From contig JAUUDM010000025.1 in assembly GCA_030826765.1 (NCBI GenBank), positions 5,365 through 69,364 of the forward strand: a DNA stretch of 64,000 nt. The letters are read 5' to 3'. Position numbers and translations under genes: made by a program. The DNA comes from Nautiliales bacterium (GTDB lineage: Bacteria; Campylobacterota; Campylobacteria; Campylobacterales; JAADDX01). Positions within the stretch are counted from its first letter, which is position 1, and every line of letters starts with the position of its first letter. The notes beneath the pieces were generated by a model, which did no database searches, was not told where the DNA came from, and saw nothing but the letters and a program-made list of their open reading frames with translations. Below are positions 43,814 to 51,586 of this stretch, one piece after another.

Positions 43814-44553
43814 TTAAATTCCACTTTTACAATCTCAGAACAAACTGGATAATGCCCTACTAATTTCACTTTATAACTTGTTACAAATTTACTATCAGCA
43901 ACTTTTTCAATATAAGCTATTTTAAAATCACTAAGTTTTGAATTTATATAAACTTTTTTATTCTTAATAGAATTAATTTTATTAATTGGAACATAAATAT
44001 ATAATTTATTTTGACTTAAATCCATAGTTTTTGCTATAAGTGAGCCAAAATTTAAATAATCTCCTTTATGCACATCAATTTCATAAATATAATTTTTAAA
44101 ACTTATATTTTTTTTAGAGATTGTATCTTTTAAAGTGGCAATTTGTGCCTCTAAATTTGAAATAGAATTTTTTGTTTGATTATAAGCAATCACACTATTT
44201 GAATAATCATAAAATTTTAAATCTTTATCATAAGTTGATTTTGATTTTAACTTTTTATAAGTTTTATAAGTATCTTTTTTTCTAAGCATAGTTTCTTTTT
44301 GAACTTTCAAAATCTCTTTTAAGTTTTTTACTTGATTTTGATAATTTTTTAAATTAACATCATCTTTGTAACTATCAACCTTAATAACTACACCTTTATA
44401 ATTTGTAGAAACCGCACTTCTATTAACATCTATAACTTTCCCAGTTATATCAGATTTAATCGTATAACTATTTATTGGCTCCACTTTTGCATAATAACCA
44501 AAAGAAAAGGTAACTATTAAACTACTTATTAAAATTTTATATATCAAATGCAC
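43810..44553 (-). CDS. HlyD-like periplasmic adaptor-type protein (barrel-sandwich plus coiled coil)
   Basis: 247 aa. N-terminal TM, then [12 protein letters not shown], a central coiled coil, and a late [15 protein letters not shown] beta segment. It overlaps the ABC ATPase gene by 17 nt. Confidence 0.55.
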
Positions 44554-45295
44554 TACTATCCCCTTTTAAAAATGCTTGAACTATCTTATTTTCACTTTTT
44601 TGAAACTCTTTTGGTGGTGCAAATTCAATAATTTCACCATTATAAAGCATACCTACATAATCGGCTATTTTAAAACTCTCTTTTAAATCGTGGCTAATTA
44701 CAATTGATGTAACTCCAAGCTTTTCTTGAAGCATCATCGTCATTTGGGAAATTAAATCACTAATTATCGGGTCTAACCCACTTGTTGGCTCATCATATAA
44801 AATTATTTTAGGCTCAAGAATAATGGCTCTTGCAGTAGCTGCTCTTTTTCTCATACCACCACTAAGCTCAAAAGGATAAAGTTTTGCTACCCTCTCACTA
44901 TCAAATCCTACCATATCAAGTTTTTCAAAAACTTTCTCTCTAATCTCATCTTCGCTAAATTTTGTATGCTCTCTAAGTGGAAACGCAACATTATCATAAA
45001 CATTCATACTATCAAACATTGCTCCCTCTTGAAATAGAAATCCAATCTTTTTACGTGTTTCAAAAATCTCTTTTTCGTTCGCTTTTGCAACATCAATTCC
45101 ATCTACAATTATTTCTCCACTATCTGGTTTCAAAAGTGAAACAATATGTTTAATAATAGTTGATTTACCCTGCCCTGAAAGTCCTAAAACGACTACAGTA
45201 CTCCCTTTTGGAATAGTTAAGTTTACATCTTTCAAAACTACTTTTGTTCCAAAGCTTTTTCTAAGATGATTTATTTCTATAATATTTTCATTCAT
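44537..45295 (-). CDS. ABC transporter ATP-binding protein (MlaF-like), no adjacent permease gene
   Basis: 252 aa with Walker A GLSGQGKST, signature LSGGMRKRAATARA and Walker B ILYDEPTSGLD. Confidence 0.88.
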   Translation of the reverse strand: MNENIIEINHLRKSFGTKVVLKDVNLTIPKGSTVVVLGLSGQGKSTIIKHIVSLLKPDSGEIIVDGIDVAKANEKEIFETRKKIGFLFQEGAMFDSMNVYDNVAFPLREHTKFSEDEIREKVFEKLDMVGFDSERVAKLYPFELSGGMRKRAATARAIILEPKIILYDEPTSGLDPIISDLISQMTMMLQEKLGVTSIVISHDLKESFKIADYVGMLYNGEIIEFAPPKEFQKSENKIVQAFLKGDSSAFDI

Positions 45296-45355
45296 TCTTT
45301 CTCCTCATAATGAAGTTATATACCTTCATTTCTCATTATAAAGCCTTTTAATATA
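45294..45355. repeat. direct repeat copy 1: decayed duplicate of the mutS7 3' end
   Basis: attctttctcctcataatgaagttatataccttcatttctcattataaagccttttaatata matches 48026-48086 (first 24 nt identical, then 5 substitutions and 1 indel). In the mutS7 frame it reads GFIMRNEGI-stop-LHYEEKE-stop. Confidence 0.85.
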
Positions 45356-45387: not shown

Positions 45388-46119
45388 TTAACTCTCAAAT
45401 CCTGTTGCTATAATTGTTAATTTTATTTCATCATCTGCAAGTAAATCATCATCAGTTTCGCCTTGGATAATAGTTACATCTTCTTTATCAATAAATTCTC
45501 CTAAAACTGATTCAAGCGCATTATCAAAATCAATCATTGGATAATTTTCATTCGTAGTTACACTGATTAATAATCCTTTTGCATTCATAATATCAATATC
45601 ATCAAGTGGTGAAAATTTTATAGCTTCATTTAATACTTCATAAGCAGAATTTTTACCTAATTTATGAGCTTTACTTGCAAATGCTATTTCTCCATTACTC
45701 ATTAGATGTTTAAAATCATTAAAATCAACCTTTAAATTATTTTCCCCAATAAGCATATTTATAATTTCATTTACAACTTCAATAGCAAAATTCTTTGAGT
45801 TTGAAATTGTAATTACTGTATCACAATATTTTTTTAAAAAATTTAATTCATTATTAACAACACCTATTGTTAAAACGTCTATATCTTTTGAAATCTGAGT
45901 AATTAAATTTATAATTTCTTTTTCTATTTTGTTATCAATAATAATAAAAATTAAATCAGCTTCTATAAGAAATTTTTTAATTTTTAAAGATTCTATATCT
46001 TTATTTATGGTTATAATTTCTACATTCTCTTTTTCTATAATAGAATCAAAAATATTATTAACAATATTGCCTACACTAACTATTTTTATTTTTAAATCTT
46101 TTTGAAAAATATTATTCAT
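45388..46119 (-). CDS. truncated FtsZ/tubulin-family homologue lacking all GTP-binding motifs (pseudo-GTPase)
   Basis: 243 aa, collinear with FtsZ. [14 protein letters not shown] aligns to [50 protein letters not shown] aligns to [50 protein letters not shown] aligns to [31 protein letters not shown] aligns to [31 protein letters not shown] aligns to ELRVTVVATG. Confidence 0.7.
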   Translation of the reverse strand: [243 protein letters not shown]

Positions 46120-46130
46120 TTTAAAATTAC

Positions 46131-46442
46131 TTATATTTTATAATGTTCATCGTCTGCAAATTCATACTTCTTTATTTTAAAAAAATCTATAATCATTTTT
46201 TTATATTCTTCATTCGCAATGATTTTTTTAGCTGCATATATAATAAACTTTTTATTATATGTATTATAAACAATCCTACCTCTTGGAAACTTATCATATC
46301 TATCAATATCAAATCCCATTTTCTCCCATTCAAAAAAATGAGAAAAATCACTATCTTTAAATCCTTTAATTTCCTCAACTTTTGATAATTTAATTCTTTT
46401 AGCTAATAAAAATTCGTCAATAATCCAAAAAATTCCTATCAT
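46131..46442 (-). CDS. small hypothetical protein (cassette gene 3)
   Basis: 103 aa with SHFFEWEKMG, FPRGRIVYN and a C-terminal ADDEHY. It has an ATGA overlap with the upstream gene. I recognise no family. Confidence 0.65.
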   Translation of the reverse strand: MIGIFWIIDEFLLAKRIKLSKVEEIKGFKDSDFSHFFEWEKMGFDIDRYDKFPRGRIVYNTYNKKFIIYAAKKIIANEEYKKMIIDFFKIKKYEFADDEHYKI

Positions 46443-47140
46443 TCTTTTTCTTTTAAACTAAAATAATTATTAACTTGATTTATTATCTCTTTTTGTTGTT
46501 TTTCCACTAATTCTAAAGGTATTGTTTTTTCATACTCCCTTATCATAGCCCCTGCTCCCATCGCTTGAGCACTACTTGAAAAAACTTCAATAAAATCTGT
46601 TTTATTTTGAATATTTTCTAAAACAAACAACTCTCCATTTATAAAAATAGTAAATTTTTTATTATCAATTTCTTGAATTTTCCCAAAACTAAGAGGATTA
46701 TTGTAACATTTATTAGTTCCTATTAAATATCCTTTTATTTTTGTTTCTTGATTTAAAGCACCTTGTGGCAAAAACAATACACTATCTTGTTTATATTTAA
46801 CTCCTAATTCAATCAAATCTTCTTTTAATTTAGCTTTTTTATCTTTATCTACTACAAATATTACTGCTAAATTTTTTTCATTTAATTTAACAGAAGCTGA
46901 TAAAAGATAATATTTTTTTCTTGAAAGTTCAATCAATAATGCTATTGCTCTTTTGCTTTCTTTAACTTCTTTTTCAGTTAAAATACTTGGCTCTTCTTTA
47001 ATAATTCCCCCAAGTTCATCTGTTTGACAAGGAAAATGATCATCTCTAAAACCACAATTATTATATTTTCTATAAGAAGTTATTACTCCACAATCAAATT
47101 TATTATTCCATTCTTCTAAAGTCATTTTCTTTTGTTGCAT
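46439..47140 (-). CDS. hypothetical protein, N-terminal half DUF3293-like (cassette gene 2)
   Basis: 233 aa. GVITSYR...SKRAIALLIELSRKKYYLL...LAVIFVV...LIELGVKYKQDSVLFL is reminiscent of the DUF3293 pattern (ITAxNP...N..R..L...E.SF.V...Q.A). It has a TAATG overlap with the upstream gene. Confidence 0.65.
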   Translation of the reverse strand: MQQKKMTLEEWNNKFDCGVITSYRKYNNCGFRDDHFPCQTDELGGIIKEEPSILTEKEVKESKRAIALLIELSRKKYYLLSASVKLNEKNLAVIFVVDKDKKAKLKEDLIELGVKYKQDSVLFLPQGALNQETKIKGYLIGTNKCYNNPLSFGKIQEIDNKKFTIFINGELFVLENIQNKTDFIEVFSSSAQAMGAGAMIREYEKTIPLELVEKQQKEIINQVNNYFSLKEKE

Positions 47141-47913
47141 TAAGATTCCTTTATCAATTCAAATTCACCTGCATGATTATTACAAAATTTTTCAATATCT
47201 CCTTTTAAATTTTCTTTACTTAAAATTAAATAAACTCTATCAGATTTAAATTTAATGGTATAAAAAAAATTATAATTATTTTTTATAAGATTTTTATCTT
47301 TTAACTCTCGTTCTTTTTTATCTATAAATATTTTATGTTTATTTTTATCTCTTATAAGATGTTGATAAATCACGACTATTTTATGATTTTCTAAAAGTTT
47401 ATCTATTTCATCAAAAAAAATATATTTACCATTTTTTATTTTTTGTTTTGCATGTGTTTTTTCTGAATAAACTTTAATTTGAGTTCCATTATCTGGGTCA
47501 GCAAATACAACATCACAATCTTTGACTTGTTCTAAAGCTTTTTTAAACCACTCTTTTCTATATTCTTCTCTTTTTTTATAATTTGAAAAAAAAGAATTAC
47601 AATCTTTATCTATACATTCATTAAAAAAAGTTATTTTTAATTTATTTTCTAATTCATTTTCTAATTTTTGAATATTTCTTTTATCTTCTTCAATTTTAGA
47701 AAATTTTTTCATTATATTTACTATTTCTTTATCATTTAAATCATAATTTTCATAATTTCTAAATTTACCATCACCATTGCCTTCATTTGGATATAAATAC
47801 CAAATAATTCCAATTTTTTTATCTTTAAATAAATTTCTAATTAAAACAAATTTACTATAATCTCCAATATCTCCAACATATCTATTTTGCATTTTATTTC
47901 CTTTTAGTTTCAT
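47140..47913 (-). CDS. RlmJ/TcmP-like Rossmann-type protein with DPDN instead of DPPY (cassette gene 1)
   Basis: 257 aa. Four collinear blocks match my memory of RlmJ: VGDIGDYSKF vs AGNHADVLKH; YLYPNEGNGDGKF vs YLDTHAGAGRY; VVFADPDNG vs LILIDPPYE; VVIYQH vs YALWYP. An alternative start is the ATG at 47892, which has the better SD aaaggaaat. Confidence 0.6.
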   Translation of the reverse strand: MKLKGNKMQNRYVGDIGDYSKFVLIRNLFKDKKIGIIWYLYPNEGNGDGKFRNYENYDLNDKEIVNIMKKFSKIEEDKRNIQKLENELENKLKITFFNECIDKDCNSFFSNYKKREEYRKEWFKKALEQVKDCDVVFADPDNGTQIKVYSEKTHAKQKIKNGKYIFFDEIDKLLENHKIVVIYQHLIRDKNKHKIFIDKKERELKDKNLIKNNYNFFYTIKFKSDRVYLILSKENLKGDIEKFCNNHAGEFELIKES

Positions 47914-48023: not shown

Positions 48024-50783
48024 TTATTCTTTCTCCTCATAATGAAGTTGTATACCTTCGCTTGTCATCATAAAGCCTTTTATATCCAATTTTCCTTCGT
48101 GTGCTAACTTGTGATGATATTTACAAAGTGGTATTAAATTATATTTATGATGTTTTTGAAATTCATTTTCAATAGTAGATTTTAGCTTTATATGATGAAC
48201 CTCATCAGCAGGTCTCCCACAGATTGCACAAGTAGTAACTAAAACATCTTTATTGTAAATTGACTTTTTATTTTTGGTTAAAAGTTCTAATTCATTATAT
48301 TCGTTTGTTACTTTTTTTCTAATCTCATTTGCTATTTTTAAAAACTCTTCATCCATATAAAGACTTTTTGCAAACTCAAGCCCATAAACACTACTTCCAC
48401 TTCCATCTTGTAATATTCTATTATAGATTAATTTTTGAGATTTTTCATCGAAATATACTTCTAAATGTTTAGCTACTACATTTTTTAAAGCTTTTATTTC
48501 ATCTAAATTCATTAATTGATGTAAGTGTGTAGCAAAAATAAAATTTGCTCTAATTTTAGATAACTTTATAACAGCACTTGCAACTATACTCAAAGCTGAT
48601 AAAGTTTCAGTTCCGTGAGAAATTTCATCACCTAAAACTAATGAATTTGAATTTGCTCTTTTGAATATATTTTTAAGTTCCATCATCTCTACTGCAAATG
48701 TAGATAAGCCTTTACTTAGATTATCTTTTGAAATAATTCTTGTAAAAATAGAATCAAATAAAGAAAATTCCATTTTAGTAGCCGGTACAAAAAATCCACT
48801 TTGAGCTAAAACTACACAAATTCCTATACTTTTCATAAGCGAACTTTTTCCACTTGAATTAATTCCATACAAAAGCATTCCATCATATTTATTGAAATCT
48901 ACATCATTTGGAACATATATTCCATTTTCTTGATTAATTTCAATTAAAGGATGACGGGCTTCTTTTATTTTTAATTTACAATTTTTAATTATTGGCTTTG
49001 AATAATCATACTTTTTAGCAATTTTTGCACTACTTAAAGCTATGTCAACTTCAGATATTTTTGTAGCTAATTCATTTAAAAAACTATATTTTTTTTCAAA
49101 TTCAGATAACTTTTCTAAAAATAGTTCCGAAGTTAAATTAATCAATTTTTGTCTAATAATTACTATTTCATTACTTATTTCATCAATAATTGAACCTGTT
49201 ATTTTCACACTATTTGTAAAAGTTTTAATATTAAAATCTTTAAAAAAATAATTATTACCATCAATTTCTATGAAAGTATCATTAAATTTATCTTTTATTA
49301 AATTAAATCTTGTTTTAGTTAAACTTAAATAATGTCCTTCTTTATCAAGTTCATTTATATTTAACTTCACATTTCCTTCAAAAAGAGATTCTATTTTTTT
49401 AGCAATAAGTTCTAAATTTTTATTTAACTTCTCTATTTTATTTGTATAATCATCTAAAGTTTTAGAATATCCATTTTTAAAAATTGACTCTTTTATATCA
49501 TTAAACATAACTTTAGCTGACTTTTCTAAATCAAATGTTTGCTTAATATCAAACAAAAACTCTTCTATTTTTGAAGTATCTTTATTTAAAAACATATATA
49601 TTTTTTTACTATTTTCTAAAGAACTATATAAATAATTTATTTCAAAGGGATGAAGCTTAGACAATTTTATTTTTCTATCTAATCTTTCAATATCATAAAT
49701 CTCATTGATTAAATTTTCAAATTTATCACCCTCTTTTAACATAAACTCAACTGCTTTATATCTTTTTTTGAGCTCTTTTTCATCTTTTATTGGATTAAAA
49801 AATCTCTGTTTTATAAGCCTTTTCCCCATTGGTGTAGAAGTTTTATCAATAAGTTTTAATACATCATCCAAATCAAGCTGTACTATTGGATTATTTCCAA
49901 AATATAAATATTTATCATTTTCTATAACTTTTGGTAAATCTATTTTTTGAATAATTTTATAATTATGAGCTATTATAAATTCAAGTAAAATAGCAAAACT
50001 TTCACTCGCTAGTGGAAGTGATTCTAAATTCAAAGATTCAATTGGACTTAAAAGTGATTTTATATTATAAACTTTTTTAAGAAGTTCATTTTGGTAAGTT
50101 ATTTTCACTCTTTTAGATGAATAAATTAAATTTATATTTTTTAGCTCTAAATAATTAATTATTTCATCACACTCAACACTCTTATCCAAAGTCAAAATAA
50201 ATTCTTTACTTTTATAAGTTTGGATAAGTTTAAAAAGCTCATCTAAAGCAAATGTTTTATCTTCATTTGTAGAATATGCTTCAAAAATATTGGTTTTTCC
50301 AGTAGTTATATCTACATTTGCATACCCTATGTGATAAATATCTTTTATTTTTTCAATAATTATACTTGTTACATAATTTTCTTCTTTTTTTACATAATCA
50401 AAATTGACTCCTGGAGAAATTATATCGCTTATATATCTTGTGACTTTTGGTGGAGTTCCCTTTTGTTTGATTAAAATGATTGTATACTTTTCTTCATCTA
50501 TAAGTTTTTGTATATATCTATCAAGTGCATGATTTGGAAATCCAGCTAAAAGTGGATTTTTATCATTAACTTCTATAATTGATTTATTTTTTCTTGTAAG
50601 CTGAATATTTAAAAGCTCTGCAACTTCTTTGGCTTTGCCAATCCCATTTGATTCATATACTTCAAAGAATGTCCCTATTTCCATCAAAACTAAAGGATTT
50701 GGATATTTACTCTCAAAATATTTTTGCAAATCAAAATAAATTTGAGTTAAAAGTTTATTTGAATTTAATATCTTATTTATCAC
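48024..50783 (-). CDS. MutS-family ATPase with C-terminal HNH endonuclease (MutS7 type)
   Basis: 919 aa. N-terminal mismatch-domain motif GTFFEVYE (Phe-x-Glu). Walker A GINSSGKSSLMKS, Walker B LVLGDEISHGTE, and FATHLHQL. C-terminal HNH block CAICGRPADEVHHIK...NLIPLCKYHHKLAHEG. Confidence 0.88.
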   Translation of the reverse strand: MINKILNSNKLLTQIYFDLQKYFESKYPNPLVLMEIGTFFEVYESNGIGKAKEVAELLNIQLTRKNKSIIEVNDKNPLLAGFPNHALDRYIQKLIDEEKYTIILIKQKGTPPKVTRYISDIISPGVNFDYVKKEENYVTSIIIEKIKDIYHIGYANVDITTGKTNIFEAYSTNEDKTFALDELFKLIQTYKSKEFILTLDKSVECDEIINYLELKNINLIYSSKRVKITYQNELLKKVYNIKSLLSPIESLNLESLPLASESFAILLEFIIAHNYKIIQKIDLPKVIENDKYLYFGNNPIVQLDLDDVLKLIDKTSTPMGKRLIKQRFFNPIKDEKELKKRYKAVEFMLKEGDKFENLINEIYDIERLDRKIKLSKLHPFEINYLYSSLENSKKIYMFLNKDTSKIEEFLFDIKQTFDLEKSAKVMFNDIKESIFKNGYSKTLDDYTNKIEKLNKNLELIAKKIESLFEGNVKLNINELDKEGHYLSLTKTRFNLIKDKFNDTFIEIDGNNYFFKDFNIKTFTNSVKITGSIIDEISNEIVIIRQKLINLTSELFLEKLSEFEKKYSFLNELATKISEVDIALSSAKIAKKYDYSKPIIKNCKLKIKEARHPLIEINQENGIYVPNDVDFNKYDGMLLYGINSSGKSSLMKSIGICVVLAQSGFFVPATKMEFSLFDSIFTRIISKDNLSKGLSTFAVEMMELKNIFKRANSNSLVLGDEISHGTETLSALSIVASAVIKLSKIRANFIFATHLHQLMNLDEIKALKNVVAKHLEVYFDEKSQKLIYNRILQDGSGSSVYGLEFAKSLYMDEEFLKIANEIRKKVTNEYNELELLTKNKKSIYNKDVLVTTCAICGRPADEVHHIKLKSTIENEFQKHHKYNLIPLCKYHHKLAHEGKLDIKGFMMTSEGIQLHYEEKE
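48026..48086. repeat. direct repeat copy 2: functional 3' end of mutS7
   Basis: attctttctcctcataatgaagttgtataccttcgcttgtcatcataaagccttttatatc. It encodes ...GFMMTSEGIQLHYEEKE-TAA and lies 2732 bp from copy 1. Confidence 0.85.
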
Positions 50784-51586
50784 TGCTTACTCTTTACATA
50801 CTCTTCTAAAAGTTCATAAGATTCTTTTATTTTCATAAACTTTTTATTATATATTTTTTGAATAAGTTCTGGCTTGTTTCTATGAAAATCTGGATGATAT
50901 TTTTTAGCAAGTCTTTTATACTCTTTTTTTACTTTTTCAAACTCATATATATTATCCGCTCCAAAAACTGAAAGTGCATTTCTAATCTGAGCTAAATACT
51001 CTTTTATACTACCTTCTACACTAAATGCTCTTTGTGAAAATCTAAATTCATTTTCATCTACAACAAAATGAACCTTATATCCCATAATTGCATTTTTTTT
51101 ACTTATTTCATATACTAATTCTTTAGAATTTTCATTAAAAGAGATTATTAACTTTTTTTCATAAAGTTCTAATATATGAAATAAAAAAAGACCTTTTATA
51201 TAATTATAAACAGGTTTTATAAATTTAGAAAATTCTATAACAAACTCTTTTGAAGAATTTTTTTTAATATTTATAGTTAAAATATCACTAAAGGAGACAC
51301 TATGTTTTTTTATTTTTATTCTTACATTTTTTCTATAATTTAAAGCTATTCTTTTTGAAATAGAGTCATCATTATGAGTTTTTTTATATAGTTTAATTAA
51401 TGTTTGAAGCATTAATTTATGTTTTTTTATATTTTCTGAATCAAAATAAATAAGATATTCATCATCTTTAATTTCAAGTTTATTAAATGAAAGTCTTATA
51501 AATTCAATAAAACTTTTTATTCTATATCTTGAATCAATAACAACATCAATGTTTTCTGAGATATCTATTTCAAAAATTCTATCCAT
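50780..51586 (-). CDS. J-domain protein with uncharacterised N-terminal region
   Basis: 268 aa. The C-terminal ~65 aa form a J domain (KKEYKRLAKKYHPDFH...IKESYELL). I recognise nothing in the N-terminal 200 aa. It has 4-nt overlaps with both neighbours. Confidence 0.75.
   Translation of the reverse strand: MDRIFEIDISENIDVVIDSRYRIKSFIEFIRLSFNKLEIKDDEYLIYFDSENIKKHKLMLQTLIKLYKKTHNDDSISKRIALNYRKNVRIKIKKHSVSFSDILTINIKKNSSKEFVIEFSKFIKPVYNYIKGLFLFHILELYEKKLIISFNENSKELVYEISKKNAIMGYKVHFVVDENEFRFSQRAFSVEGSIKEYLAQIRNALSVFGADNIYEFEKVKKEYKRLAKKYHPDFHRNKPELIQKIYNKKFMKIKESYELLEEYVKSKQ

Follow-up and report, generated by a model that had tools for sequence, protein, structure and literature searches.

An FtsZ-derived pseudo-GTPase with a retained activating domain in an accessory insertion of a Nautiliales bacterium

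We analyzed a 64,000-nucleotide stretch of DNA from a Nautiliales bacterium (contig JAUUDM010000025.1, positions 5,365 to 69,364; hereinafter the window) with a focus on an open reading frame (ORF) coding for a 243-residue protein, which is almost certainly a pseudo-GTPase derived from the division protein FtsZ and lodged in an accessory insertion. In this protein the loops that contact guanosine triphosphate (GTP) in FtsZ are deleted or substituted, whereas the C-terminal GTPase-activating domain, along with both aspartates of the T7 synergy loop, is retained. As for its function, we tentatively favor a role as a heterotypic cap or modulator of the filaments of genuine FtsZ, a reading to which we accord somewhat less than an even chance and which is weighed below against decay of a duplicate gene, a decoy function, a role unrelated to FtsZ and outright toxicity.

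FtsZ Homology and Fold

The relationship of the 243-residue protein to FtsZ, which an initial annotation had recognized by eye, is beyond doubt in terms of both homology and fold. A Pfam search recovers the FtsZ_C domain (PF12327) over residues 154–242 (E = 1.8e-10; 41.4 bits against a gathering score of 27), with no match in the same search to PF00091, the Tubulin/FtsZ GTPase domain. Among the NCBIfam models, TIGR00065 (ftsZ) matches with E = 1.5e-16 but at 60.7 bits, below its equivalog cut-off of 295.2. Likewise, a phmmer search against all chains of the PDB retrieves 49 FtsZ sequences, headed by that of Bacillus subtilis (2rhh; 1.6e-14), with weak but collinear segments in the N-terminal part (query residues 10–52 to chain residues 3–47; 49–95 to 81–129).

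An AlphaFold2 model of the protein, for which an 18-sequence alignment served as input, has a mean predicted local distance difference test (pLDDT) score of 81.7 and a predicted template modeling (pTM) score of 0.81, the means of 10-residue blocks ranging from 54 to 89 in the N-terminal part and from 72 to 94 in the C-terminal part. In the secondary structure of the model, S1, S2, S4, S5 and S6 lead into a long H7, after which comes the full C-terminal domain (H8-S7-H9-S8-H10-S9-S10). When this model is compared to the PDB with Foldseek, the best 50 matches are without exception FtsZ structures, in line with the annotation's proposal that a structure search should recover the FtsZ fold; the full chain is aligned, with E down to 4.2e-18 and a TMq of 0.69–0.83 for nearly all of these 50 matches. 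Model and comparison thus place in this protein the two-domain fold of FtsZ (a Rossmann-like N-domain, H7 and the C-terminal activating domain), with the N-domain cut to five strands. The protein is nevertheless outside the FtsZ equivalog family: its score is too low, it has neither the GTPase domain nor the signature motifs nor the tail, and its gene is in another context, the C-terminal domain and the fold being what it shares with that family.

Lost and Retained Elements of FtsZ

To define the losses, we used as the reference the nearest full-length FtsZs (P0005–P0014, described below), with the numbering alone following what we take to be the sequence of Escherichia coli FtsZ. The initial annotation had described the protein as collinear with FtsZ from S1 to the end of the C-terminal domain; the order of the elements is indeed kept, but only when four gaps are admitted. 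The individual losses that it had named are confirmed by the alignments: the T1 motif GGGGGN has become GNIVNN; the deletion put at about 35 residues in T2/T3 amounts to 37, which take out most of T2 along with H2, S3 and T3 (GLGAG motif included); and IDNKIEK, with a 2-residue gap, stands in place of the T4 signature GGGTGTG. The beginning of T2, an N-x-D motif (N39, D41), is retained just before the 37-residue deletion, and the T1/H1 remnant starting with GNIVNN is not conserved, the other four members of the family having an extra 7-residue deletion there. Two more deletions had been overlooked: one removes 15 residues of T5/H5 (PFKREGAKR...) and the other 19 residues of H6, T6 and the N-terminus of H7, a region that presumably holds the guanine-binding aspartate in other FtsZs. 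The claim that the nucleotide pocket is lost thus survives proper alignment, in that no intact GTP-binding motif is found and the losses in T5 and H6-H7 add to it. The C-terminal tail is absent as well, as had been stated: the protein stops at ...IIATGFES, and the P0005-type FtsZs run about 56 residues further through a linker and a C-terminal peptide (...IPTYMR).

Conversely, the retained elements lie on the T7 side. The T7 block, N(V/T)DFAD in the genuine FtsZs, reads KVDFND, which agrees with the earlier reading that both aspartates are kept and the asparagine is changed to lysine. The aspartates, Asp132 and Asp135, correspond to D209 and D212 of E. coli FtsZ, and the lysine at the conserved asparagine position (Lys130) is common to all five family members. 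The good preservation of the C-terminal subdomain noted at the outset is likewise evident, with about 60% identity to the nearest genuine FtsZ; the N domain, which keeps S1, S2, S4, S5 and S6, is about 38% identical. The amino acid composition reflects the same division. In the N-terminal part, the residues F, Y, M, I, N and K (FYMINK) together make up 56% and glycine 1.6%, as against 33% and 12.7% in the N domain of genuine FtsZ; in the C-terminal part the corresponding values are 36% and 5.9%, as against 28% and 7.5%. Thus, the C-domain is still FtsZ-like in composition, whereas the N part has drifted.

These losses and retentions can be placed on the known architecture of the FtsZ filament. 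Of the nucleotide-contacting loops, T1–T4 touch the phosphates, T5 the ribose and T6 the guanine (PMC8936486). Because these contact loops are deleted or substituted, a nucleotide pocket is not plausible in the 243-residue protein, and it would thus not plausibly bind GTP. The filament itself is built on four longitudinal contacts: H10 with the H6-H7 loop, S9 with T5, H8 with T3, and T7 with H1 and H2 (Ruiz et al. 2022, PMC8936486). Among the partners on the nucleotide side, the H6-H7 loop, T5, T3 and H2 are deleted in the 243-residue protein, and H1 is degenerate (and deleted in the four relatives), whereas the partners on the T7 side, H10, S9, H8 and T7, are all present. As the alignments show, a second subunit would have nothing to dock to on the nucleotide side of this protein and, with the tail gone, FtsA/ZipA-type tethers would be unable to recruit it.

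Relatives and Origin

The family proper is small. In a word-indexed search of 5.8 billion proteins, only four close relatives were found (P0001–P0004; 231–235 residues), all from metagenomes of the Joint Genome Institute (JGI) and 65–89% identical to the window protein by BLASTP (67–91% in alignments). When 1.84 billion cluster representatives were searched exhaustively with HMMER, 2,075 FtsZ-like proteins passed E <= 1e-3, of which only two remained at E <= 1e-30, namely the family's own representative and P0018, a 269-residue protein that is 50% identical in an end-to-end alignment.

The nearest full-length relatives are P0005–P0014 (371–381 residues; 43–49% identity; E = 2.5e-44 to 8.5e-41), which contain both PF00091 and PF12327. 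One of them, P0007, directly follows ftsA in a surA-ftsA-ftsZ gene order (L006 and L007); since it is encoded right after ftsA, we regard the P0005-type proteins as the genuine division FtsZs of this lineage. They share with the window protein the fold, the C domain, the T7 aspartate pair, H7 and S1, S2, S4, S5 and S6. They differ in having the glycine motifs of T1 and T4, the T2/H2/S3/T3 segment, T5, H6-H7, the linker and peptide, and the ftsA context, all of which the window protein lacks; its gene is not in the ftsA or division and cell wall (dcw) neighborhood. From these comparisons, the P0005-type FtsZ is clearly the evolutionary parent of the window protein.

Two further proteins look like intermediates between the full-length FtsZs and the 231–243-residue forms. 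In P0020 (293 residues), T1 (GIGGASGN) is almost intact, T4 (GMGNETGTK) half so, and T5 and H6-H7 are complete, with T3 missing; the protein stops exactly at S10, although its missing tail could be an artefact of truncation. In P0018, T1, T2/T3 and T4 have been lost, T5 is degenerate and H6-H7 is kept in part. The annotation had also called for a phylogenetic survey of the truncated family: neighbor-joining trees computed separately for the N and the C parts both place the window family, together with P0018 and P0020, beside the P0005-type clade, and so locate its origin there. In the C part of P0003 (L004, 705–1406) we also observed residues of genuine FtsZ (LLINTT, YDNS) at positions where the window copy differs; these could be either an ancestral state that was kept or the product of gene conversion from a resident ftsZ.

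A second group of reduced forms, family B (P0021, P0022, P0024, P0025, P0031, P0040, P0047 and P0064; 244–299 residues), is apparently larger and may outweigh the window family in importance. Several of its genes are on contigs of 49–170 kb, and one is in a Sulfurimonas metagenome-assembled genome (MAG), where it is annotated as a ‘hypothetical protein’. Like the window protein, its members have the T2-T3 deletion and no linker or C-terminal peptide, T1 and T4 being decayed to a variable degree, and they keep the T7 motif N-x-D-x-x-D; indeed, the D-x-x-D pair of T7 is present in every reduced form, those of family B included. Unlike the window protein, they mostly keep T5 and H6-H7, and several end in a C-terminal ...ANNI motif. 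Identity between family B and the window protein is only about 30%, and family B forms a separate clade in the trees of both parts, which reject a common origin of the two families. Therefore, reduced FtsZ paralogues that lost T3 and the tail and kept the T7 aspartates have arisen at least twice in Campylobacterota. Our literature search found no description of reduced FtsZ paralogues from this phylum.

An Accessory Insertion at a Variable Junction

The gene for the FtsZ-like protein is the last of four abutting or overlapping genes on the minus strand (p257, p233, p103 and the FtsZ-like gene; Table 1), which are bracketed by a 57-nt direct repeat (52 of 57 positions identical), the starts of the two copies being 2,732 bp apart. 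Its 24-nt core has no further occurrence in the window, and 0.01 chance matches would be expected. The downstream copy reads ...GAGGAGAAAGAATGA, i.e., a former mutS stop overlapping the start codon and ribosome-binding site of the gene for an ATP-binding cassette (ABC) transporter ATPase. As the flanking repeat contains this relic of the mutS 3' end, the four genes can be understood as an insertion at the mutS/ABC junction. L002, L004 and L005 likewise have the relic copy after the FtsZ-like gene, and its being common to these loci points to a single ancestral insertion. The insertion has a guanine-plus-cytosine (GC) content of 21.4% as against 27.0% for the window, and the FtsZ-like gene 21.7% as against 33.3% for genuine ftsZ. 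No integrase or transposase gene is present within the insertion, and neither the insertion site nor the 64-kb window has a tRNA, tmRNA or Rfam family at the gathering threshold. A Logan contig from SRR24909052 matches the region with 100% identity, and the identical protein is also on record from an NCBI contig of 80.7 kb.

Table 1. Coordinates of the FtsZ-like gene, its domains, its partners and the flanking features in the window.
Feature	Position	Strand	Basis or remark
FtsZ-derived pseudo-GTPase ORF, 243 aa, ATG start	45388..46119 (including stop codon)	(-)	FtsZ homology and fold
Vestigial N-terminal (nucleotide-binding) domain, aa 1–124	45748..46119	(-)	Alignments, AlphaFold2, composition
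T7 synergy-loop block, aa 125–137	45709..45747	(-)	Alignments
C-terminal GTPase-activating domain, aa 125–243 (T7, H8, S7, H9, S8, H10, S9, S10)	45391..45747	(-)	Pfam FtsZ_C, pLDDT 86–94
p103, 103 aa	46131..46442	(-)	ORF; upstream of the FtsZ-like gene also in L003–L005
p233, 233 aa, partner of p257	46439..47140	(-)	ORF; paired in Lebetimonas natsushimae
p257, 257 aa, first gene of the insertion	47140..47913	(-)	ORF; 29 homologues
Direct repeat copy 1, true 3' end of the MutS-HNH gene	48026..48082		Repeat comparison
Direct repeat copy 2, mutS 3'-end relic with ABC ATPase ribosome-binding site and ATG; downstream edge of the insertion	45294..45350		
Upstream flank: 919-aa MutS-family protein with C-terminal HNH-like region	48024..50783	(-)	Pfam MutS_I/III/V
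Downstream flank: ABC-transporter ATPase, core gene	44537..45295	(-)	dN/dS 0.05–0.11

Judging by the C-terminus of the MutS protein, the nearest species-representative genomes are Nautiliales/Nautiliaceae MAGs (68–76% identity), and not one of the 80 MutS loci examined carries any of the four island genes. Together with the homologues of the island partners in Lebetimonas and Nautilia, this similarity marks the host as a Nautiliales-like, vent-type member of Campylobacterota and speaks against Arcobacter. In L009 and L015 the site is empty, the ABC gene following about 35 nt after mutS, whereas L010, L011 and L014 have other inserts of 0.3–0.75 kb at the junction. The mutS/ABC junction is thus a variable hot spot in Nautiliaceae MAGs, and, since the site is empty in related genomes, the FtsZ-like gene is evidently dispensable. 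At the same junction, L010 (2808–3431) and L011 (7731–8342) have an ORF of 203–207 codons on the opposite strand, and in L008, L012 and L013 different genes follow mutS, the products being a TetR-like regulator, a 319-residue protein running off the end of the contig and a membrane protein.

Selection and Allelic Exchange

We examined the selective regime of the FtsZ-like gene through the ratio of nonsynonymous to synonymous substitution rates (dN/dS), computed by the Nei–Gojobori method over the five alleles. For the FtsZ-like gene it is 0.63–1.37 as a whole, 0.51–0.92 in the N part and 0.62–1.24 in the C part, with 0.13–0.30 for p103 and 0.05–0.11 for the adjoining ABC ATPase. The five copies differ by at least 168 substitutions (a parsimony lower bound), among which there is not one stop codon. 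Under neutrality, 4.2% of substitutions drawn at random from the empirical spectrum create a stop, so that 7.1 would be expected (probability of none, about 7e-4); in Monte-Carlo simulations, at least one stop appeared in 99.8% of the sequences. Moreover, none of the four indel events (1, 7, 2 and 2 codons) shifts the frame. The frame is thus kept open by selection, though the constraint on the amino acid sequence is weak.

Within the five-member family there are four blocks in which 10 of 11 or 10 of 10 positions are invariant: residues 85–100, the T7 block (125–135), 151–161 and 175–185. We read these patterns as those of a protein that is translated and selected to stay folded with an intact core of the activating domain, most of its surface being weakly constrained or diversifying. 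Such weak constraint fits a dispensable modulator, a decoy in an arms race or a decaying gene.

The alleles also have a mosaic history. Between the window and L002 the synonymous divergence (dS) is 0.033 in the FtsZ-like gene versus 0.54 in the ABC gene; between the window and L004 it is 0.014 in p233 versus 0.28 in the FtsZ-like gene; and P0001 is similar to P0003 and P0004 at its N-terminus and to the window copy in the remainder. This indicates that the island or its segments have recently been exchanged by recombination or transfer among strains.

A Possible Mode of Action and Its Alternatives

Briefly, we advance the following mechanism. A duplication of the lineage's own P0005-type ftsZ would have given rise to a pseudo-GTPase, which then shrank stepwise, from about 380 through 293 and 269 to 231–243 residues, such that T1–T6, the nucleotide-side polymerization face and the tether tail were removed or scrambled. 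The remnant would consist of a five-stranded N-terminal stump, H7 and an intact C-terminal activating domain with both T7 aspartates. The sole FtsZ-type activity left to it would be heterotypic: its T7/H8/S9/H10 face might be offered to the GTP-bearing face of genuine FtsZ, either on a free GTP-bound monomer or on the subunit at the nucleotide-exposed (shrinking) end of a filament. There it could act as a non-extendable end cap or as a partner similar to a GTPase-activating protein (GAP), with hydrolysis possibly stimulated through D132 and D135. The outcome would probably be a mild tuning of turnover, by way of slower loss at the shrinking end, seeding or titration of monomers, rather than a poisoning of growth.

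Docking by the T7 face first, with no further extension, is the structurally natural reading of the pattern of loss, to the extent that it can be read from the alignments. The initial annotation had suggested a subunit that docks and yet offers no pocket for the next one. In favor of this, the pocket and acceptor face are absent, the T7 side is intact and the deletions match the four longitudinal contacts; the change of the T7 asparagine to lysine speaks against it. As to the consequences, PMC8936486, with reference to Du et al. 2018 and to Redick et al. 2005, describes monomers as joining via their GTP-bound face at the T7-exposing, growing end, with shrinkage from the nucleotide-exposed end, and mutants of the T7-side interface as toxic and those of the nucleotide-side interface as not. 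From this polarity and the non-toxic nature of the nucleotide-side class, a mild or stabilizing effect is to be expected, and therefore a modulator rather than a poison. The modulator reading also fits the position of the gene, which shares its orientation with the long series of housekeeping genes around it, in a region where a scan detected no terminator-like sites, as well as its evident dispensability.

Several observations weigh against a cap or modulator. Only five copies are known in total, throughout from metagenomes. The 64-kb window contains no other ftsZ, so that the host's own gene is not within it. The dN/dS of the FtsZ-like gene is 5–10 times that of its neighbors, the C-domain included, and within the family H8, S7, H10 and S9 are variable, of which H8, H10 and S9 belong to the presumed docking face. 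The notion that T7 is the uniquely most conserved block is not upheld: 10 of its 11 positions are invariant (p = 0.017, uncorrected), but the three other blocks equal it. In S. aureus FtsZ, the T7 asparagine, N208, coordinates K+ and forms hydrogen bonds with D46 and Q48 of the adjoining subunit, and N208L abolishes assembly (PMC8936486); canonical docking is hence not assured where this residue is a lysine. No Shine–Dalgarno-like sequence precedes the ATG of the FtsZ-like gene (TAAGTAATTTTAAAATG, window 46120–46135). The ATG is 11 nt past the p103 stop, and in L003 (672–675) the two genes overlap by 4 nt; this spacing without a Shine–Dalgarno sequence suggests translational coupling or weak expression. 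Finally, FtsZ3 of Agrobacterium tumefaciens, the nearest characterized analogue in kind, has neither a localization nor a deletion or overexpression phenotype (bioRxiv 10.1101/412759, 10.1101/2025.09.29.679267).

Many of these points are also what one would expect of a decaying duplicate, which we consider unlikely on balance, although it is the best-placed of the alternatives. The gene would then be a non-functional or nearly non-functional ftsZ relic, carried along by a small mobile insertion while AT-biased mutation and deletions wear it away, its frame being open on account of its youth and of recombination between a few closely related alleles. The dN/dS values, at 0.63–1.37 versus 0.05–0.30 in the neighbors, the progressive deletions with a further 7-residue loss in four of five copies, the low GC content and FYMINK-rich N part, the absence of a Shine–Dalgarno sequence, the very narrow distribution and the A. 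tumefaciens FtsZ3 precedent of a truncated paralogue without phenotype are all consistent with it. Yet decay does not sit well with the lack of stops where about seven are expected, or with indels that are all in frame; the hydrophobic patterns of the strands and the core motifs of the C-domain are kept, the whole chain is predicted to fold confidently, and the deletions strip the surface loops of a single face, with none in the C-domain. The independent family B, with the same losses and retentions on long contigs, argues further for a selected architecture.

The open frame, the high dN/dS, the variable H10, S9 and H8 and the residence in a recombining, AT-rich hot-spot island are, taken together, typical of a gene engaged in conflict. 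They would be accommodated by a decoy or sponge that acts outside filaments and shields genuine FtsZ, mimicking the T7-side (H10/S9/T7) surface to titrate inhibitors of the SulA, MinC, MciZ or MipZ type or phage-encoded inhibitors of FtsZ. The known inhibitors bind exactly the surface that is retained (H10, S8-H10, T7), and the features needed for growing-side interference or membrane access are all gone. However, relaxed constraint explains the variability equally well, no candidate inhibitor was identified, and the partner genes occur alone elsewhere, so that no dedicated system is evident. Moreover, neither the FtsZ-like protein nor its three island partners have homology to defense, phage or toxin proteins: none of the four is matched by PADLOC, none has an informative match in PHROGs, and no relative of the FtsZ-like protein is found on the viral contigs of IMG/VR. 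On these negative results we reject an origin in defense, toxin or phage systems, and hold the decoy to be quite unlikely.

We regard as still more improbable a new role unrelated to FtsZ, in which the reduced fold would serve as a scaffold or partner for p103, p233, p257 or some other target. It would suit the arrangement of the four genes, which are collinear, abutting or overlapping with no terminator between them and together in all five loci, and the change of the T7 asparagine to lysine could disable canonical docking. Against this, the p257–p233 pair and p103 occur without the FtsZ-like gene in Lebetimonas and Nautilia-type genomes, P0018 has other neighbors, and the parts conserved are precisely the catalytic aspartate pair and the core motifs of the FtsZ C-domain.

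Lastly, the potent division poison or division-arrest effector that the initial annotation had suggested, which would block Z-ring assembly by sub-stoichiometric capping in the manner of a toxin or abortive-infection protein, has very little probability in our estimate: a subunit that allows no extension could in principle terminate the chain, and overexpressed FtsZ1 of A. tumefaciens (truncated, with an intact GTPase domain) blocks division, but growth is at the T7-exposing end, the polarity predicting binding to the shrinking end or to monomers, nucleotide-side-defective subunits are non-toxic and the toxic cappers are T7-side-defective, there is no antitoxin-like partner, regulator or defense signature, the position in a housekeeping run without terminators implies a constitutive co-transcription that would be intolerable for a lethal poison, and the constraint is weak.

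Returning to the cap or modulator, one may ask if it could represent something more general. FtsZ-derived pseudo-GTPases that keep the T7/activating face might be a recurrent class of FtsZ regulators in Campylobacterota, evolved at least twice (in the window family with its 293- and 269-residue intermediates and in the Sulfurimonas-type family B) and capping, nucleating or acting in a GAP-like way at the shrinking end; we consider this extension rather doubtful. Were it true, bacteria would have in this class an equivalent of a minus-end factor, derived from the very fold of the polymer.

Comparison with Known FtsZ Paralogues and Regulators

Truncated FtsZ paralogues as such are known, for instance from Hyphomicrobiales. 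FtsZ1 and FtsZ3 of A. tumefaciens resemble the window protein in being non-essential extra copies outside dcw that lack the linker and C-terminal peptide, though they are of an unrelated lineage and origin. FtsZ1 has a complete, active GTPase domain and co-polymerizes, its overexpression blocking division, and such truncated paralogues have been proposed as tuners of division (bioRxiv 10.1101/412759, 10.1101/2025.09.29.679267). The window protein shares with the FtsZ1 type the loss of the tail but not the complete GTPase domain. In FtsZ3 the GTPase domain is incomplete and the N-terminal part is kept, whereas the window protein keeps the opposite half. Thus, where the characterized truncated copies of FtsZ retain the nucleotide-binding half, the window protein is their mirror image, a natural FtsZ that is null on the nucleotide side. 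We could not find in the literature a description of this architecture, with the activating domain kept and the nucleotide face erased.

Among regulators, the FtsZ-like domain of ARC3, in the Min system of chloroplasts, is by analogy from the literature the main precedent for an FtsZ-derived regulator of the Z-ring. ARC3 is, however, eukaryotic and multidomain, with middle and MORN regions, and is regulated by ARC6 and others. MciZ, MipZ, MinC and SulA are regulators that occupy the longitudinal interface of FtsZ, as we propose for the window protein, but their fold is unrelated and they attach to FtsZ at its T7-side face, whereby the growing end is blocked or monomers are sequestered. The window protein would itself present a T7-type face and so bind the opposite, nucleotide-bearing face.

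Should it indeed bind FtsZ, a natural protein acting on the nucleotide-exposed (shrinking) end would be known for the first time; it would also be a tool for testing the control of treadmilling from that end and, as in ARC3, a cytoskeletal regulator that evolved from the polymer. The series from about 380 through 293 and 269 to 243 residues, along with the independent family, offers a tractable case of the convergent evolution of pseudo-enzymes. If the gene is merely decaying, it would still be a record of how the duplicate of an essential gene erodes loop by loop in a small mobile insertion.

Island Partners and Neighboring Genes

The three genes that accompany the FtsZ-like gene have histories of their own. 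In Lebetimonas natsushimae (L089, 6001–7411) p257 and p233 form a pair, each 58% identical to its counterpart in the window, without p103 or an FtsZ-like gene. The motifs G-D-x-x-D...K, D-P-D-x-G and Y-x-H are invariant in p257, for which neither Pfam nor NCBIfam gives a match; a profile search of the PDB likewise gave nothing meaningful. The AlphaFold2 model of p257 (pLDDT 90.1) has weak Foldseek matches in the PDB to Rossmann-type methyltransferases (best E = 1.4e-3), with a TMq of 0.40 to RlmJ. For p233 there is a sub-threshold match to the S-adenosylmethionine (S-AdoMet) lyase family (E = 0.053). In L090, a homologue of p257 is located two genes from a regulator with a WYL domain. Homologues of p103, about 68% identical, are solitary in Nautilia-type contigs (e.g., after a Peptidase_M50 gene); that they stand alone elsewhere leads us to reject the idea that p103 is specifically dedicated to the FtsZ-like protein. 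The neighbors of the P0018 gene also differ from those in the window, and the island is a mosaic. A scan for promoters gave 27 sites as against 24.8 expected, which is uninformative in AT-rich DNA.

In the flanks, the MutS-HNH protein, which combines the MutS_I, MutS_III and MutS_V domains with a Cys/His-rich, HNH-like C-terminus, is found at 46–76% identity in 80 Campylobacterota loci and in a few labeled as other phyla; this 919-residue protein resembles what we take to be the ‘MutS7’ type. Overlapping the start of its gene is that of a 268-residue protein (window 50780–51586), with weak PHROG matches and a KKYHPD motif, presumably one typical of J-domains, in its C-terminal ~60 residues and no match over the rest; this protein is conserved along with MutS-HNH in L008 (64% identity). 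Elsewhere in the window, the genes turn to the plus strand between about 27 and 39 kb, and the GC skew reverses alongside.

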